Source of the DNA: an uncultured Bdellovibrionales bacterium
GTDB taxonomy: Bacteria; Patescibacteriota; Minisyncoccia; Moranbacterales; UBA1568
Assembly: GCA_964579335.1 (NCBI GenBank)
Contig: CAZOFS010000003.1
Coordinates: 1-63,126, forward strand
DNA: 63,126 nt
Direction: 5' to 3'
The position numbers and the translations under genes are program-made. Positions 5,859 through 13,164 of the stretch are shown piece after piece (the stretch's first letter is position 1; each line of letters starts with the position of its first letter). A model generated the notes under the pieces. The model saw only the letters and a program-made list of their open reading frames with translations. It ran no database searches and was not told the DNA's origin.

Positions 5859-8219
5859 ATGTCCCGCGAACTTATCATCTTTGATCGTCCGGCCAAAAAA
5901 GCGGCAGCCAAGAAGGCCGTGGTTGATCCAGTGACTTCGGTAGTGTCTCCGGTGGCGCCCAAGGCATCAGCACCCGTAGCTCCCAAAAAGAGTACCCTCA
6001 TGCCCGTTAAACCTGTGACAAAACCTAAGCCAGCACCCAAGGTAGCTCCAGTGAAGCCGGTGGCAGAGAAAGAAGTCGCTCCTCAGGCACCAGTCAAGCC
6101 CGCTCGCCCACCTAAGATTGCTCCTGTACCGAGTGTTTTTGAACGGGAACTCAGTGGGGCTGATGAAGCAGTCGATACGCTCTCATCTGTTGGGGAGAAA
6201 CGCTCAATAGAAGTGGAAGAGAAAGTCTCGACGTCCCCTCCGCTTCAGCGGACCGAACGCCCACTCCATAAAGACAGAATTGCTATTCCTGATCTTTCCA
6301 ATCCTATACCAGAGCGTGCTCCATTGGAGGATGAGTCAGAAAGAGAAGTCTCGCGCCAGACCAAAAAATCCTGGTTCTCCTTTGGGAAGTCCAAAGCATC
6401 TGTTCGTTCAAGTCGGATCGAAGAGGATATCGATGTGAATGCGGGAACTATAGATACTGAGGCGCTCTATGCTCGGGGATTGGCTACTATCAAAGACCTT
6501 ATTGCTCCACCCGCTATCAAGGTGACGGCCAATGTTATGCAAATTGGTGACGTGGTTTCTCGGACACTGTTTGTCATTGCCTACCCACGTTTCCTCTCGA
6601 CTAATTGGTTTAGTCCGATTGTGAACATTGATTTTCCTATGGATACGGCTCTCTTTGTCCATCCAATTGATACGGCTGATATCCTCAAAACCCTCCGCAA
6701 GCAAGCTACTCAAGTGCAGTCCCAGATGAATATTGAGCTCGAAGACGGGAAAATTCGTGATCCAGTACTTGAATCAGCCCTCCAGAACATTGAAGAGTTA
6801 CGAGATCGGCTGCAGCAGGGGACCGAAAAGTTTTTCCGTTTCGGGCTCTATATCACCCTTTATGGCTCAGATGAGAAGGATCTTAATAGTAAGACCAAAT
6901 CAATCGAGGCTATGCTCGAGGCTCAGCTTATCTATACCAAGCCAGCGGTCTTGCGTATGGACAAGGGTTTTGCTGCGACCAGACCCCTCGCGAGTGACGT
7001 ACTCGATGTAGCCAATAATCTCAATACTGAACCGCTTTCAACCACCTTTCCTTTTGTTTCTTCTGACCTCTCTTCCAATGAAGGCATTCTCTACGGGATC
7101 AATCGACATAACAATAGCCTCATCCTCTTTGACCGTTTCAAGATGGAGAATGCTAATATGGTGGTGTTTGCGAAGTCGGGAGCTGGTAAGAGTTATACAG
7201 TCAAACTCGAAGTGTTGCGCTCCCTCATGTTCCGGACCGATGTGATTATTATCGATCCAGAAAATGAATACAAACATCTCTGTGAGACAGTAGGAGGAGC
7301 GTTCGTGCCAATTTCGCTTAACTCAAGTATTCACCTCAATCCCTTTGATCTCCCCAAGATGAAGGAAGGGGAAGATCGTGAAGGCGTGTTTCGCAATGCC
7401 ATCGCCAACCTCGTCGGACTCCTCCACCTCATGCTCGGGACACTGACACCCGAGGAGGATTCGATTCTCGACCAGGCTATTCGTGAAACCTATGCTATCC
7501 GCGATATTCATGCCGGGACTGACTTCTCTCAATTGACCACGGCTTCGTACCCGACCATGTCAGATCTCCATGCCACACTGCGGAGTATGGAAGGAGCTGA
7601 ATCACTCGCGGTCCGACTGGAGCGCTATACGGAAGGTATTTTTGCTGGTTTTCTCAACAATCAGACCAATATTGAGACCAATAATCAGCTCACGGTGTTC
7701 AATATTCGAGATCTCGAGGAAGAACTTCGTCCGATCGCTATGTACATGGTGCTACAGCATATTTGGAATGAGATTCGCTCGACTCTCAAGCAGCGGATGA
7801 TTGTCGTCGATGAGGCCTGGATCATGATGCAAAACGAAGATGCCGCTGCCTTCCTCTTCGGAATTGCCAAGCGTTGTCGTAAATACTTCACTGGTCTTAC
7901 CACTATCACTCAGGATATTAGTGATTTCATGTCGTCACGCTATGGGAAGCCTATCGTTACCAACTCGTCGATGCAGCTCCTCCTTCGTCAATCGCCCGCT
8001 TCGATCGAATACGTGACTGAAACGTTTTATCTCACCGACCATGAGAAGTTCCTCCTTCTTGAGTCCAATGTCGGAGAGGGTATTTTCTTTGCTGGGACCA
8101 AACATGCTGCGATCAAAGTTATCGCTTCGTATAGTGAAGACCAGATTATTACTTCTGATCCGAGACAGCTTCTCGAAATCGAAGAAGCTAAAAGAGAATT
8201 CGATGCCAATAACCCATAG
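5859..8219 (+). CDS. virB4: VirB4/TrsE-type T4SS ATPase with a Pro/Ala/Lys/Val-rich N-terminal extension
   Basis: Walker A FAKSGAGKSYTVK, Walker B MIVVDEAWIMM and a TTITQD motif are present. A VirB4-type N-domain (IAPPAIKV...YPRFLSTNWFSPIV) precedes the ATPase domain. Confidence 0.85.
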   Translation: MSRELIIFDRPAKKAAAKKAVVDPVTSVVSPVAPKASAPVAPKKSTLMPVKPVTKPKPAPKVAPVKPVAEKEVAPQAPVKPARPPKIAPVPSVFERELSGADEAVDTLSSVGEKRSIEVEEKVSTSPPLQRTERPLHKDRIAIPDLSNPIPERAPLEDESEREVSRQTKKSWFSFGKSKASVRSSRIEEDIDVNAGTIDTEALYARGLATIKDLIAPPAIKVTANVMQIGDVVSRTLFVIAYPRFLSTNWFSPIVNIDFPMDTALFVHPIDTADILKTLRKQATQVQSQMNIELEDGKIRDPVLESALQNIEELRDRLQQGTEKFFRFGLYITLYGSDEKDLNSKTKSIEAMLEAQLIYTKPAVLRMDKGFAATRPLASDVLDVANNLNTEPLSTTFPFVSSDLSSNEGILYGINRHNNSLILFDRFKMENANMVVFAKSGAGKSYTVKLEVLRSLMFRTDVIIIDPENEYKHLCETVGGAFVPISLNSSIHLNPFDLPKMKEGEDREGVFRNAIANLVGLLHLMLGTLTPEEDSILDQAIRETYAIRDIHAGTDFSQLTTASYPTMSDLHATLRSMEGAESLAVRLERYTEGIFAGFLNNQTNIETNNQLTVFNIRDLEEELRPIAMYMVLQHIWNEIRSTLKQRMIVVDEAWIMMQNEDAAAFLFGIAKRCRKYFTGLTTITQDISDFMSSRYGKPIVTNSSMQLLLRQSPASIEYVTETFYLTDHEKFLLLESNVGEGIFFAGTKHAAIKVIASYSEDQIITSDPRQLLEIEEAKREFDANNP

Positions 8220-9395: not shown

Positions 9396-12272
9396 ATGCT
9401 GACATTGTTTACAAAGAAACTCCTCCATTCTTTTTTAAGTGGACTCCTTGTTGTGGGGATGATGGTCCCGTCTCTTGCGCCTGTTCAAGCAGGTCTTTTT
9501 AGTACGCCAAAAATACCCAATCCTTCAGATTTTGCTTCAGATATGGAGCAACGGTACCATATCAATCCTGAAAATATTCAGGAGCAGGGGGAAACGCTCA
9601 ATGTGAGTGACAATAAGAAGGGTACGCCCCAGGTCTCTCTCTTTTTCACTCCCAGCGATCCGCAGGAGGGTCAGAAAATTACTGCACGGTCTTTCCCGAT
9701 CTATTTCGCTAGTGATTCGAGTGACATGTATTTCACCTGGTATCTCCAGCGTAGCGAATGTAAAAAGAACAACTCCCCATCAGGTACGGTCCGAGATCGG
9801 TGTGATTTGAATGGTGATGGCCGGGTTGGTATCGAAGATTGGAAAATAGAGGCAGCCCGTATCATTGCCACTGATGGGTACGACGCCAACTTTACGAGCT
9901 ATACGAGTGATAGTGATAATGATGGGTATCAAGCCCGGTTCGGTGGTAATAGTCGAGTGAATGTACCCAACTACTGTTACTATCACGACAATACTTCTGG
10001 TGAAAACTACGAAATCGTAGAAGATGTTGGTGACACCACCTTTGATGGATGTACCAATGGGGAGGCGGTCTGTATGGAGGGAACAGTTTCGGTTGATCCT
10101 GGTGAGATTAGTGCTAGTGCGAGTGGAGGGAGTTCGAGTGCTGGAGGGGACACCTTTGAGGTCAATAGTGAAAATGATACTGTGACGGGATATCCCTATT
10201 GTGATGCCTCGGGAGTGATTGGTTGTATTAATGGGACGCCCTGTTGTGTGGGTAATGCTGTGACTGCTACCAATTGCACCGTTGATATTACTGGTACTAC
10301 CTGTAGCGCTTCATCGAGCGGGAGTAGTAATCCAGTTTGTAAACACCTTTTCGCGAAGCCGTCAGGCTTTACCAGTGGTGATGGAAGTTTTGGTGCTGGA
10401 GAAGAAGCATTCTGGCAAACTGATCCAAATGATCCTAATACCTCTGATAATGGCAACAAGGATGAGGCCAATGTCGTTGGCTTGGGTCAGGAAAGCTTTA
10501 CGTGGAATTATAGTCCGGGAGATAAGGTTGGGGTAGTGATCGAAGGAGTGTCAATGAATCCTACTAAACACGATGACTCGTCCAACATGATCATGTGGGG
10601 ATTTTCCAAGAACACCTGTGATTATCGGAAATTTGATGCCAATACAGGAACCTACCAGAAAAATATTCGTGGTTACAATGTATCTATTCAAACTATTGAT
10701 CTCAACCTCAATGATTGTCTAGAGGATAACTTGGTGGATCCACTCGAGGGTGGGCAAGCGACTGGTCTCGAAGTTGATCTTCAGGCTACTCCCGATAACC
10801 CCATTAACGACGGGTCAGGGGGCAATAGTGGGGATACGGTTTCAGTGATAGCCAATATCAATAACTCAGCTCAGGAACTTCAGAGTACGTACTTTGATTG
10901 GAAAGTATATCTTTCTCGGGATGGGACTCCCAATCCGTCAGCTGGTGGTTGGGAGAATATCACTCCCTGGTTGAGTGCTGAAAGTCGTAAGTTTCTTTCT
11001 CAATATAAGGGTAATGGCCTAGGATCTATCTCAGTAGCACTCAATTTTAAAGACTCTGCTCGTTCGGAAGATTTTATAGGAGGGAGACCTTTGAGTTCAT
11101 ATACTCCCAGTGGAGTAGGATACCTCAAGTTCCAGGTAGACGTAGCTGAGAATTTTAACCCTTCAGGTACGGCGAGTAGGCGAGGGAAAAGCGATGTGAT
11201 TGTTAAGTTTACCTCAACCTCTGATCGAATCGGAGCCTATATCGTTGACATCAGTGGTGACCCAGCCAGACTTAGTCTAACCAATAAAGAAATATGTAGT
11301 GGTACGGTCAATCCAGCTGATACTCAGGAAAAACAAATTCTCACGAAGCTCGATGCAAAGCTTTGTCGGGTAATTAAAAATGAAATTATTGGACTTAAAG
11401 TGGTTTCTCCCGAAGGATCATTGTCTAACTTTAGTTGGACTATCAATGGTCTGCCTCTCGTCTGTAATACACAGGTGTCAGCTAGTTGTCCTAGTGATAC
11501 TCAAGGAGCTATTAACTTCTTTCCTATTATTGGAAATGTTGGAGATGTCTTTACGATTACTGTATCTGGGACCAAAGCCTCCTATGCTGATGGAAGGATA
11601 AGTGGCGAAAGTACCCCGGCTCTTTCTGGGAAAGCCATCACCTTATCTCGTTCTTTCAAAATCGTTGAGCCAGGAGTGTCAATTGAAACAGCTGATGAAA
11701 ACCAGGCTTGGCCAAAAATTCTGGGGAGATATACCGATCCATCGACGGGCCAAACCTATCCAGACCTTAGCAAAACCACTCTCCAGGCTTTTGCCGGTTC
11801 AGTGGTTAGATTAAAAGCCACCTTTACCCCAGATTTTCTTGGATCTTTTACTCCACCACAGGTAGAGCGATCTTGGGCAGTTGATTCAGAAGGTGTGGGC
11901 GATGGATCGAGCAATGAGATATCGTTTGCCACTTTGAAAGAGCCAGGCGAGATTTACAATGTCACGCTGACTTCGGTGTACCGACCAAGTACGCTTACAC
12001 GCAAGGCCCTTCTCGATATATGGAATATCTCGAGTCTCGACACGACAGAAATGTATTTCAAGACCGAAACACAGCTTGAGCATCCAGAGCAAATAGATCT
12101 CGCTCAAGCAGGGACAAATAAATATCTCGCTCTCCTCTCGAGTTACCTCCCAGCACCGCTGCTCTTCTCTATCCGTATCTTTCTCTCAGTTGGACTCATC
12201 ATCTTTGTCACTGGGTTTCTCTTTGCTCTCATTCCCAATGCCCCAGCTCGTTTCGAGCGTTTCCGGCATTAG
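9396..12272 (+). CDS. Large exported Cys-rich surface protein with a C-terminal membrane anchor
   Basis: N-terminal signal-like LLHSFLSGLLVVGMMVPSLAPVQA, a dockerin/EF-hand-like loop DLNGDGRVGIEDW, and a Cys-rich block around aa 190-320. A C-terminal hydrophobic helix is followed by a basic tail (FLFALIPNAPARFERFRH). It is the last gene of the cluster. Confidence 0.7.
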   Translation: MLTLFTKKLLHSFLSGLLVVGMMVPSLAPVQAGLFSTPKIPNPSDFASDMEQRYHINPENIQEQGETLNVSDNKKGTPQVSLFFTPSDPQEGQKITARSFPIYFASDSSDMYFTWYLQRSECKKNNSPSGTVRDRCDLNGDGRVGIEDWKIEAARIIATDGYDANFTSYTSDSDNDGYQARFGGNSRVNVPNYCYYHDNTSGENYEIVEDVGDTTFDGCTNGEAVCMEGTVSVDPGEISASASGGSSSAGGDTFEVNSENDTVTGYPYCDASGVIGCINGTPCCVGNAVTATNCTVDITGTTCSASSSGSSNPVCKHLFAKPSGFTSGDGSFGAGEEAFWQTDPNDPNTSDNGNKDEANVVGLGQESFTWNYSPGDKVGVVIEGVSMNPTKHDDSSNMIMWGFSKNTCDYRKFDANTGTYQKNIRGYNVSIQTIDLNLNDCLEDNLVDPLEGGQATGLEVDLQATPDNPINDGSGGNSGDTVSVIANINNSAQELQSTYFDWKVYLSRDGTPNPSAGGWENITPWLSAESRKFLSQYKGNGLGSISVALNFKDSARSEDFIGGRPLSSYTPSGVGYLKFQVDVAENFNPSGTASRRGKSDVIVKFTSTSDRIGAYIVDISGDPARLSLTNKEICSGTVNPADTQEKQILTKLDAKLCRVIKNEIIGLKVVSPEGSLSNFSWTINGLPLVCNTQVSASCPSDTQGAINFFPIIGNVGDVFTITVSGTKASYADGRISGESTPALSGKAITLSRSFKIVEPGVSIETADENQAWPKILGRYTDPSTGQTYPDLSKTTLQAFAGSVVRLKATFTPDFLGSFTPPQVERSWAVDSEGVGDGSSNEISFATLKEPGEIYNVTLTSVYRPSTLTRKALLDIWNISSLDTTEMYFKTETQLEHPEQIDLAQAGTNKYLALLSSYLPAPLLFSIRIFLSVGLIIFVTGFLFALIPNAPARFERFRH

Positions 12273-12290
12273 GCTCGTAGCAATATACAA

Positions 12291-12319
12291 AAAATCTCCC
12301 TACTAGAGGGAGATTTTTT
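12291..12319 (+). terminator. Rho-independent terminator of the T4SS-like cluster
   Basis: AAAATCTCCCT-ACTAG-AGGGAGATTTT stem-loop followed by a T-run. Confidence 0.8.
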
Positions 12320-12378
12320 AACTGAGCTTATTTTCCTTCTAGTACCGCGAGAGACCCTCCTTTGCCAAAGCTTCAGAC

Positions 12379-12404
12379 AGGCAGGCCCGCCTGCCTCTGG
12401 CGGG
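12379..12404. repeat. GGCAGG-family GC-rich hairpin (AGGCAGG-CCCG-CCTGCCT, overlapping CCCGCC...GGCGGG)
   Basis: 7-bp stem read directly. It shares the motif GCAGGCGGGC (minus strand here) with 12787-12796. Confidence 0.6.
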
Positions 12405-12568
12405 GACTCGCCCTAGTAGTAGAACAAGTTTACTACGGGGTAAAAACTCTCATATGATTGCTTTTGTTATTTCAATCAGACCCAGTGTGTCCATACTGAA
12501 ATATTTTGTGGGCAAGAGAGGACTCGAACCTCCATGGATTGCTCCACCAGTTCCTAAGACTGGCGCGT

Positions 12569-12707
12569 CCCGTCACTCATTTAGTAGTGCTGCAGGAGAG
12601 ACTCGAACTCTCATGGGATTACTCCCGCTAGCTCCTAAGGCTAGTGCGTATACCAATTCCGCCACTGCAGCAAATTTCATTTTGTGTCACATATTATGAG
12701 TGACGGG
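12569..12707. repeat. 12-bp inverted repeat pair (CCCGTCACTCAT 12569-12580 / ATGAGTGACGGG 12696-12707) bracketing the intact tRNA-Leu
   Basis: Exact reverse complements read directly. They enclose tRNA-Leu 12588-12671 plus short spacers. Confidence 0.8.
12588..12671 (-). tRNA. tRNA-Leu (anticodon UAG), intact, no encoded CCA
   Basis: GCTGCAG/CTGCAGC acceptor stem, 3-bp D stem, anticodon loop CTTAGGA, long variable arm CGGGAGTAATCCCAT, T arm GAGAG-TTCGAGT-CTCTC, discriminator A. Confidence 0.9.
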
Positions 12708-12816
12708 GTGAATCTACCAACCTGCCCCGCACCAAGCGTAGCTTCGGTGCTGGGGTTCCCTGCCCGTAATGCTACGCATAAGCGTTGCAGGCGGGCGCCA
12801 CTTGCCCATTCTATCC

Positions 12817-13164
12817 TTAAGCGAGGAGGGTAATACCCCCAACACTCTGTTCTATCCGACCCAACTCCTCCTTGAGGGCCCCGTCGTTCTCGTACTCACC
12901 GTGATGACGGGTGTCTTTGCCATAGGTCTCACGTTTCTGATCGAGATGAAGACTAAAGACATATTTCCCACTCTCTATTTTGACATAACAGTGAAAGCGG
13001 GGAAATCCAGCCCGAGCCAGTGGCCGGACAAAGCTTTGCTCGCCATTTTCCTGGTATTGAAAAATGTATCCCAGCCGGCGCATGAGAGTGGTAGCATTGT
13101 CGGTTTGAGAGGTGAGGGTAAAGCGCATAAGCATTAGGAACATGAAACTTGAAACATGAAACAT
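12817..13164 (-). CDS. Small conserved-looking hypothetical protein (His-rich motifs FHCYVKI, LHLDQK, HHGEY)
   Basis: The ORF is on the same strand as the flanking tRNAs and cca. The start is uncertain: the first ~12 codons translate a heptamer array, and Met11 or Met13 are alternatives. Confidence 0.5.
   Translation of the reverse strand: MFHVSSFMFLMLMRFTLTSQTDNATTLMRRLGYIFQYQENGEQSFVRPLARAGFPRFHCYVKIESGKYVFSLHLDQKRETYGKDTRHHGEYENDGALKEELGRIEQSVGGITLLA

Follow-up and report, generated by a model that had tools for sequence, protein, structure and literature searches.

A tRNA-Leu(UAG) gene nested in the D-loop of a second tRNA-Leu(UAG) gene in Candidatus Moranbacteria: a possible case of gene replacement by a repeat-bounded tRNA cassette

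The 63-kb stretch of genome analysed here (contig CAZOFS010000003.1, hereafter the window) carries on its minus strand a tRNA-Leu(UAG) gene that is interrupted twice in its D-loop, once by a GC-rich palindromic insert and once by a segment that contains a second, complete tRNA-Leu(UAG) gene. Relatives of its CCA-adding enzyme place the window in Candidatus Moranbacteria (Candidate Phyla Radiation (CPR)/Patescibacteria). The labels “uncultured Bdellovibrionales” and “Gammaproteobacteria” of several metagenome-assembled genomes (MAGs; third-party annotation (TPA) assemblies) are plainly wrong for CPR contigs. A first-pass annotation of the window had proposed that three minus-strand pieces fit together as one 83-nt type II tRNA, and we found their sequences at the positions given in Table 1 exactly as claimed. 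ARAGORN calls the joined 83-mer as tRNA-Leu(tag) with a 7-bp acceptor stem, a long variable arm and a T arm; omission of the D-loop piece abolishes the call. The outer gene in its genomic form does not score as a tRNA: only its 3' piece matches RF00005 (17.7 bits, E = 0.8), below the gathering threshold of 29 bits. The 71-nt insert folds under DNA parameters into the two hairpins described before, and the 145-nt insert does contain an intact and different tRNA-Leu(UAG), recognized by both ARAGORN and RF00005, inside a perfect 12-bp helix formed by CCCGTCACTCAT and ATGAGTGACGGG. The predicted fold of the full locus is a nested double cloverleaf (z = -4.9 relative to shuffles).

A chance match of the outer pieces is not plausible, since the 12-mer GGGCAAGTGGCG occurs a single time in the window and its 7-nt acceptor complement stands beside a T arm 285 nt away. 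The 5' piece agrees in alignment with the uninterrupted orthologues in L051, L052 and L033 (L-numbers designate comparison loci fetched from other genomes or contigs, with one genome per species), and the 3' piece gives BLAST matches to complete tRNA-Leu genes of relatives. Two independent Logan assemblies, DRR274965 and SRR16481186, are identical to the window in the 5' part of the arrangement; with three assemblies in agreement, it is unlikely that the nesting is an assembly artefact. The joined outer tRNA departs from its uninterrupted orthologues solely at the junction with insert 1, where it reads GCG/CAGGTTGG compared with GCG-GAATTGG. All eight compared tRNAs show GAA (G13-A14-A15) at the place of CAGG in the outer gene, the A of which might substitute for A14. 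In predicted folds CAGG (12721-12724) pairs with CCTG at the start of insert 1. Because of this pairing and the orthologue alignment, CAGG is probably part of the insert, so that TTGGTAGA is the secure part of the D-loop piece that had been proposed. The native G13-A14-A15 of the outer D-loop was probably lost through insert 1, and we consider it highly likely that the outer gene is non-functional.

Table 1. Features of the nested tRNA-Leu(UAG) locus and its surroundings, in window coordinates
Feature	Position	Strand	Details
Outer tRNA-Leu(UAG), 5' piece, GGGCAAG-type allele	12796-12807	-	GGGCAAGTGGCG; acceptor 5' strand, U8, G9, D-stem 5' strand
Insert 1, composite GC-rich palindromic element, 71 nt	12725-12795	-	probably reaching 12721
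Hairpin A of insert 1	12758-12795	-	CCCGCCTGC...GGGCAGGG
Hairpin B of insert 1	12725-12755	-	CCCCAGCACC...GGTGCGGGG
Outer D-loop piece	12713-12724	-	CAGGTTGGTAGA; secure part TTGGTAGA at 12713-12720
Insert 2, 145 nt, holds inner tRNA	12568-12712	-	
Left flank of inner gene	12672-12712	-	repeat arm CCCGTCACTCAT at 12696-12707
Inner tRNA-Leu(UAG), GCTGCAG-type allele, intact, 84 nt	12588-12671	-	ARAGORN; RF00005 59.1 bits
Right flank of inner gene	12568-12587	-	repeat arm ATGAGTGACGGG at 12569-12580
Outer 3' piece, 59 nt	12509-12567	-	D-stem 3' strand, anticodon, variable and T arms, acceptor 3' strand, discriminator A
Oldest tRNA-Leu remnant, GCCGCGG-type	12342-12451	-	hairpin inserts at two T-arm sites
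Parts of the oldest remnant	12445-12451; 12405-12410; 12342-12354	-	GAGAGTT; CGAGTC; TCTCTCGCGGTAC
Intrinsic terminator-like hairpin and T-run	12289-12319	-	AAAAAATCTCCCT-ctagt-AGGGAGATTTTTT

Via relatives of the CCA-adding enzyme we gathered 80 syntenic loci, in which the order is CCA enzyme, tRNA-Pro(cgg), a conserved open reading frame (ORF) of 103 codons and tRNA-Leu(tag). The tRNA-Leu(UAG) at this site exists as two deeply diverged alleles, GGGCAGG-type and GCYGNGG-type, in different species. The joined outer gene of the window belongs to the GGGCAGG-type lineage (with up to 83% identity to the genes of L052, L033 and L051, which are uninterrupted) and the inner gene to the GCYGNGG-type lineage. 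A comparison of synteny, as the first-pass annotation had suggested, did reveal uninterrupted orthologues: the GGGCAGG-type is the sole and uninterrupted gene at the same syntenic position in L019, L033, L051, L052, L079 and others. In the closest relatives, L001-L003, the sole tRNA-Leu(UAG) shares 89-93% identity with the inner gene, which thus represents the clade-typical allele and is presumably the working gene. Inner and outer gene share 79% identity, which rules out a recent local duplication. A sigma-70-like match, TTGGTA-N16-CATAAT, lies at 12693-12720 on the minus strand, with its -35 box TTGGTA in the outer D-loop piece and its -10 box CATAAT in the left flank, about 20 nt 5' of the inner tRNA. 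In a promoter scan such matches at the locus were no more numerous than in shuffles.

The nested arrangement is one instance of a pattern found at several tRNA genes in several CPR lineages. When 61 complete tRNA-Leu genes were compared with the 260-nt flanks of each locus at a cut-off of 24 bits, fragments of tRNA-Leu(tag) were found beside the live gene in 13 of 62 loci, 3' fragments downstream in ten and 5' fragments upstream in five, and in none with the reversed-sequence control. L071 also has a complete nesting, located at the same edge of its D-loop as in the window; its repeat differs in sequence (TGCCCGC..TGCCA / TGGCA..GCGGGCA) and its outer gene has an extra, bulged base in the anticodon stem. 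In L001 only the 5' piece of a GCCGTAG-type gene precedes a window-like left flank and the live gene, and this outer allele is intact at the same place in L023, a relative of L001. In L029 just the matching acceptor halves are left around the live gene, and L055 has mismatched 5' and 3' remnants. Across the relatives L071, L001, L011 and L029 the same nesting is seen in progressive decay. Replacement has occurred in both directions, as GCCG-type remnants accompany a GGGCAGG-type gene in L019, L051 and L017 and the reverse is found in L055. Partial self-copies within 300 nt were detected for 22 of 168 tRNAs of CPR loci (control 0). All ten positives of a mixed locus set fell into five CPR-labelled or ambiguously labelled loci, and its loci from Chloroflexota, Vampirovibrionales and Eremiobacterota had no self-copies. 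The first-pass annotation knew of no bacterial tRNA gene within a tRNA gene, and we likewise found no description of such genes, or of hairpin-interrupted tRNA genes, in the bacterial literature; the case is nevertheless not unique, since it recurs in CPR bacteria. A related order is seen at tRNA-Ser(cga) in L036 (2340-2620), where a 14-nt 5' piece is followed by the intact gene, a D-loop bit between two hairpins and then a 3' piece of a second tRNA-Ser that starts at about position 26 and reaches the 3' end.

The inverted repeat around the inner gene links the window to nestings of another tRNA. We searched 2.2 Mb of fetched sequence for CCCGTYAC...GTRACGGG within 200 nt and found such pairs at five places, namely around tRNA-Pro(cgg) in L004, L006, L009 and L049 and around tRNA-Leu in the window. 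The repeat family thus surrounds tRNA-Pro in four other genomes, and neither it nor the other insert repeats occur elsewhere in the window outside the nested locus. The homology extends to the flanks: TTCACCCCGTCAC of the left flank is homologous to TTCGTCCCGTCAC of the tRNA-Pro cassettes in L004, L006 and L009, and TTCACCCCGTCACTCA to TTCACCCTATTACTCA of L001; CTACTAAATGAGTGACGGGACG of the right flank aligns to CTACTGCTTAAATGTGACGGGACG, which flanks the tRNA-Pro cassette of L004 on the right, and its motif is also present at the right junction of L011. L004 (7567-7745) has a tRNA-Pro(cgg) inside the anticodon arm of another tRNA-Pro identical to it, in the order outer 1-30, 16-bp repeat arm, inner gene, other arm, outer 35-76; the identity comprises the 5' piece and 39 nt in the 3' piece. 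Decayed or variant cassettes are found in L006, L009, L011, L048, L049, L001, L066, L072, L074 and L075. Compared to the perfect 12 bp of the window, the terminal inverted repeats of these related cassettes measure 7-16 bp, and their sequence differs between lineages. L007 has a simple tRNA-Pro with a similar flanking duplex. Judged by this comparison, the repeat is a separable vehicle that carries different tRNA cargo. At the simple tRNA-Leu genes of the closest relatives no leader-trailer complement of at least 8 nt exists, and the similarity of the window's left flank to their upstream flanks is no better than that of shuffled controls. This dissimilarity indicates that the left flank is not derived from the local leader, and both observations together indicate that the repeat came with the cassette.

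Scans of metagenomes gave no match to the right junction and two chance matches without a tRNA to the left junction. When a genome collection was scanned for CCCGTCAC-N(95-125)-GTGACGGGACG, chance matches in GC-rich genomes predominated among the matches listed. The sole ARAGORN tRNA near a match among these, a tRNA-His of the actinobacterial contig L317, was taken as a chance co-occurrence.

Insert 1 consists of two GC-rich hairpins. A copy of its hairpin A that is identical at 37 of 38 positions lies in opposite orientation in L247 (4329-4366), where it follows GGTTC in the T-loop of a 3' fragment of tRNA-Val, 44 nt downstream of an intact tRNA-Val. This pair of sequences demonstrates by comparison that hairpin A has been mobile recently. 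Hairpins related to insert 1 are present in L052, L058 and L048, and the arms of hairpin B resemble the repeat around the nested tRNA-Pro of L048. Hairpins of the form CCNGCC...GGCNGG follow GAGTC and GTT in T-arm remnants of different alleles (L013, L029, L039, L048, L052, L055, L058) and are also found in the D-loops of 5' remnants (L017, L019, L038, L051, L055). One member of the hairpin family, the perfect 20-nt palindrome CCTGCCTGCCGGCAGGCAGG, lies at 405-424 of the window before a T-run and recurs without change in over 120 genomes from many phyla (CPR, Bacteroidota, Omnitrophota and Planctomycetota), far above the approximately one match expected by chance as estimated from collection size and pattern length. 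It is found within tRNA fragments of relatives; in CPR genomes it often directly follows ..TAGA in D-arms of truncated tRNAs, with an intact copy next downstream. The double hairpin TCCGCCAAAGGCGGA + CCAGCCTCKGGCTGG is present in T-loop remnants, and in L076 (6526-6555) a 30-nt double hairpin TCCGCCAAAGGCGGA-CCAGCCTCTGGCTGG lies in frame within the gene of the CCA-adding enzyme, where its ten codons add SAKGGPASGW. The near-identical copy, the related hairpins and the in-frame copy together identify dispersed palindromic elements that are frequent in tRNA loops.

Short GC-rich dispersed palindromes inserted in RNA genes are known as Rickettsia palindromic elements, repetitive extragenic palindromic (REP) elements, mitochondrial GC clusters and double-hairpin elements. 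Insert 1 resembles them in being palindromic, in having near-identical copies elsewhere and in the tolerance of its relatives within genes, as in the CCA-adding enzyme of L076. The hairpins described here are, however, shorter (16-40 nt) and often located in D- and T-loops of tRNAs or their fragments, and family members or similar repeats can enclose a whole tRNA gene. A similar double hairpin is present inside another ORF in L073 (2018-2047), and Moranbacteria including the window have an unrelated insertion of 10-12 residues at the same point of the CCA enzyme as the hairpin of L076. In L052 (about 7360-7470), and with the same sequence in L047, a 39-nt GC hairpin separates C56 and G57 in the T-loop of tRNA-Pro(cgg), the only intact-looking copy at that locus; a decayed first tRNA-Pro copy upstream bears the 20-nt palindrome at the same position. 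L249 (about 2600-2860) has two tandem partial tRNA-Gly(gcc) in which the anticodon arm is replaced by the hairpin GATCCGCCTGAGGCGGAT, with an intact gene downstream. This MAG is labelled Chitinophagales, hence the phenomenon is not strictly confined to CPR genomes.

Downstream of the outer gene the window retains traces of a still older tRNA-Leu. After removal of its hairpin inserts, this GCCGCGG-type remnant shares 24 of 26 positions with the 3' terminus of L023's intact tRNA-Leu, and the same architecture with hairpins at two sites is found in L039 and L052. As read from the alignments, the window therefore holds three gene generations: a T-arm remnant, an interrupted outer gene and an intact inner gene. 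The terminator-like hairpin aligns with terminator stems of Rfam leader models and was not called by a simple terminator scan; it presumably ends one transcription unit that comprises all three generations.

The explanation that we favor, with moderate confidence, is that a tRNA cassette bounded by an inverted repeat inserted into the resident gene and replaced it, leaving a pseudogene. The inner segment of about 145 nt, bounded by CCCGTCAC.../...GTGACGGG, would have arrived with a complete tRNA and entered the resident GGGCAAG-type gene at the 3' D-loop edge without target duplication. The same step would have broken the resident gene and supplied its replacement. Since the insert brings a working gene, the cell would survive the disruption of a tRNA gene that is presumably single-copy and essential. 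The GC-rich composite hairpin element would have hit the resident gene too, at the 5' edge of the D-loop; a broken resident would generally be invaded by hairpin elements and then eroded, and the still older gene would have ended as the hairpin-riddled T-arm remnant downstream. This scenario builds on the anatomy of the locus, the uninterrupted orthologues, the recurrence with graded decay, the hairpin copy and the homology of the repeat flanks with the tRNA-Pro nestings. From these we infer that the cassette entered by insertion and not by local duplication, and that the repeat-bounded unit may itself be mobile or homing. One of the two readings offered by the first-pass annotation, in which a functional replacement sits within a disrupted pseudogene, is supported by the uninterrupted orthologues, the decaying nestings, the older remnant and the apparent loss of D-loop bases.

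Several observations weigh against the cassette scenario. Neither an enzyme nor a target-site duplication was found for the cassette: inspection of the junction sequences showed no such duplication at the window, L004 or L071, and the solo hairpins, which fit precisely into loops, lack one as well. Since a second copy is also absent from the 63-kb window, the argument for mobility of the cassette is a comparative one. That tRNA-Leu(UAG) is single-copy is a presumption; the analysis covered 63 kb of the genome. Apart from the junction, the outer gene is undecayed, with all stems perfect and conserved bases kept, so either the disruption is very recent or some constraint persists. In L004, a leader-trailer helix of about 21 bp (-34 kcal/mol compared to -15 for shuffles) belongs to the outer tRNA-Pro unit itself, and this case could be explained by local duplication of a repeat-bounded unit. 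Furthermore, repeat helices outlast decayed outer halves (15 bp in L009, 13 bp in L074), and L049 shows a compensatory change in the repeat helix, with T:A in place of the C:G of L004. Such persistent helices would be no less expected of an RNA or DNA structure under selection than of transposon ends.

Some of these points lend weight to a local origin, the most serious rival, which we nevertheless judge rather improbable. The gene would have been duplicated locally together with a native leader-trailer stem, for example by template switching at DNA hairpin tips, followed by palindrome invasion and decay by deletion; the repeat would then be a processing stem of the pre-tRNA, for instance an RNase III site. 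Inner and outer tRNA-Pro of L004 are indeed identical and the outer gene has a strong leader-trailer duplex of its own, the same kind of duplex occurs at the simple tRNA-Pro of L007, and the compensatory changes in the repeat helices agree with a processing stem. Same-allele partial copies, as counted above for CPR-locus tRNAs, and the tandem partial copies in L161, L249 and L072 also point to local events. However, inner and outer genes are deeply diverged in the window, L071, L001 and L048, with compensatory differences in their stems. The repeat of the window is homologous to tRNA-Pro cassettes of other genomes and not to the flanks of simple tRNA-Leu genes. Moreover, the outer halves are exactly complementary (split between positions 21 and 22 or 22 and 23), so that local duplication would need two duplications sharing one breakpoint.

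The nested locus could also be a scar left by integrase-mediated integration and imprecise loss of larger elements that use tRNA-Leu(UAG) as attachment site, although this is improbable. 3' fragments starting in the T-loop, the classic signature of attachment sites, are common at these loci, and a structured insert of about 95 nt with a duplicated 20-nt tRNA 3' end is found at tRNA-Pro and tRNA-Ser of several loci. tRNA-targeting integrative elements likewise enter conserved loops, bring back a working gene with the insert and leave the displaced native part behind as a fragment. Here, however, the insert measures just 145 nt, is flanked by inverted instead of direct repeats and holds a whole tRNA of a different allele than the outer 3' piece; the site is the D-loop (for tRNA-Pro, the anticodon), and 5' fragments upstream together with D-loop breakpoints form an unusual pattern. 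No integrase, transposase or other element gene was seen among the scanned ORFs of the window, which are core genes of a chromosomal region, and viral contigs scanned for both tRNA 3' ends gave no match. The insert of about 95 nt, GAGAAAGCCAACTGCTTGGCTTTC ... CAGGCCCGCAGGG, is conserved and stands between a tRNA and a duplicate of the last approximately 20 nt of that tRNA, starting in the T-loop. We found it after tRNA-Pro in L033 (6893-7010), L080, L034, L039, L044 and L069 and after tRNA-Ser in L034 (1769-1880), L049 and L021; it appears to represent a second class of small insertions that target tRNA genes, here with a long duplication of the target.

Least probable, and in our view very unlikely, is the other reading of the first-pass annotation, an expressed nested or split tRNA, in which RNase P, RNase Z and perhaps RNase III would cut a precursor of about 300 nt and free the inner tRNA, while the outer pieces, paired by the 12-bp helix and the acceptor stem or ligated, would give a second tRNA-Leu(UAG) or a tRNA-like RNA: the intact outer stems, the predicted double cloverleaf, the position of every piece upstream of one terminator-like hairpin, the compensatory change that maintains repeat helices and the hairpin-bearing tRNA-Pro of L052/L047 speak for it, but the outer shell is not conserved, relatives are found at every stage of decay down to the mismatched remnants of L055, the outer gene of L071 has a bulged anticodon stem, G13-A14-A15 was probably removed at the insert-1 junction, a free D-loop piece of 8-12 nt would have no base-paired anchor, and there is no evident need for a redundant further tRNA with that anticodon. 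The split, tri-split and multi-intron tRNAs of the archaea Nanoarchaeum, Caldivirga and Thermoproteales (PMC4390854, PMC4090602) are similar in their non-canonical interruptions, including the D-arm, and in the GC-rich helix of about 12 bp that unites the halves. In contrast to these, neither junction of the window has a bulge-helix-bulge (3-nt bulges around a 4-bp helix) by inspection or in the predicted fold, where the helix is continuous, the insert contains a complete tRNA, and the interrupted gene is not kept as a functional copy in relatives, which are uninterrupted or decaying. Neither a splicing endonuclease nor a ligase was seen among the scanned ORFs of the window. We know of no splicing endonuclease in bacterial hosts of this kind. 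Rfam contained no intron or ribozyme family matching 12250-12900 at E values up to 10.

Group I introns in tRNA genes resemble the cassette in their site-specific entry into a conserved tRNA loop and their spread among alleles without target duplication. Here, in contrast, a ribozyme core is lacking, the D-loop and not the anticodon loop is entered, and rescue comes from a second copy and not from splicing. Intervening sequences of rRNA are removed by RNase III, and rRNA insertions have been reported in CPR bacteria. These are likewise hairpin-like insertions in structural RNA genes in the same kind of organism, and a fragmented RNA could in principle function; the interrupted tRNA described here, by contrast, is lost by relatives.

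Among the neighbors of the locus are genes for the CCA-adding enzyme, IF-2, RecA, GyrB, FtsA, FtsZ, HisRS and a VirB4/TraG-like ATPase. PMC12102498 describes a type IV secretion system as a feature of Patescibacteria. The upstream genes resembling such a system (VirB4/TraG) were considered as an integrated element, a possibility rejected by the core-gene context of the window. The 103-aa protein (12817-13125, minus strand, true start MRFTL) was found in Moranbacteria and Parcubacteria only, where its gene invariably separates tRNA-Pro from tRNA-Leu. PRFH.Y, HLD.K, TYG and RHHGEY are invariant motifs of this protein, which has no Pfam match; its AlphaFold model (predicted local distance difference test (pLDDT) 83) gives weak matches to the KA1 and METTL16-VCR-like RNA-binding folds (template modeling (TM) score about 0.5). 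In view of these results, its candidacy as a nuclease is unsupported. A look-up of the 958-aa neighboring protein for contigs spanning the locus from the other side returned no record.

The contigs from DRR274965 and SRR16481186 (L252 and L253, respectively) carry the same small ORF and both end within the nested locus. L252 has 133 differences to the window in its first 1,945 nt and none in its last 1,594 nt. The identical part appears to be a tract of recent recombination; it comprises the 3' half of the CCA enzyme gene, tRNA-Pro, the ORF and the nested locus. Selection at the locus, considered on the basis of this second strain, was rejected because the identity tract is not specific to the locus.

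The logic of the arrangement is known from tRNA-targeting integrative elements. Its form appears to be new in the minimal inverted-repeat unit with a complete tRNA, in the loop-targeting palindromes and in the recurrence across CPR bacteria. As a tentative generalization, inverted-repeat-bounded tRNA genes might be a novel self-complementing mobile or homing unit of CPR bacteria. Such a unit would enter a conserved loop of a resident gene of the same isoacceptor and destroy this gene while putting its own allele in place; empty or related forms of the unit would then be seen in the small GC hairpins. Alternatively, selection might maintain the repeat helix as a signal for processing, and cleavage without ligation could render some of the nested or hairpin-bearing tRNAs functional. 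The tRNA-Pro of L052 and L047 poses the question whether a bacterial tRNA can tolerate or shed a loop insertion. For genome analysis, tRNA finders miss or mis-count such loci and contigs break at them, as the two assemblies that end within this locus illustrate; the fragments may also inflate or confuse tRNA-based completeness estimates of CPR genomes. In the usual view, tRNA genes change less than any others and serve integrases passively as landing pads. At this locus, complete rival copies seem to have repeatedly displaced a presumably essential tRNA from within its own loops, and the dead copies remain as datable layers. Should the repeat-bounded unit be mobile, it would represent a minimal selfish element that carries nothing but the gene that it destroys, and as an autonomous homing or mobile entity it would deserve a category of its own. 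It would also offer bacteria with tiny genomes a route for the horizontal exchange of tRNA alleles and, if indeed self-complementing, would cause a drive-like turnover of tRNA alleles between lineages.

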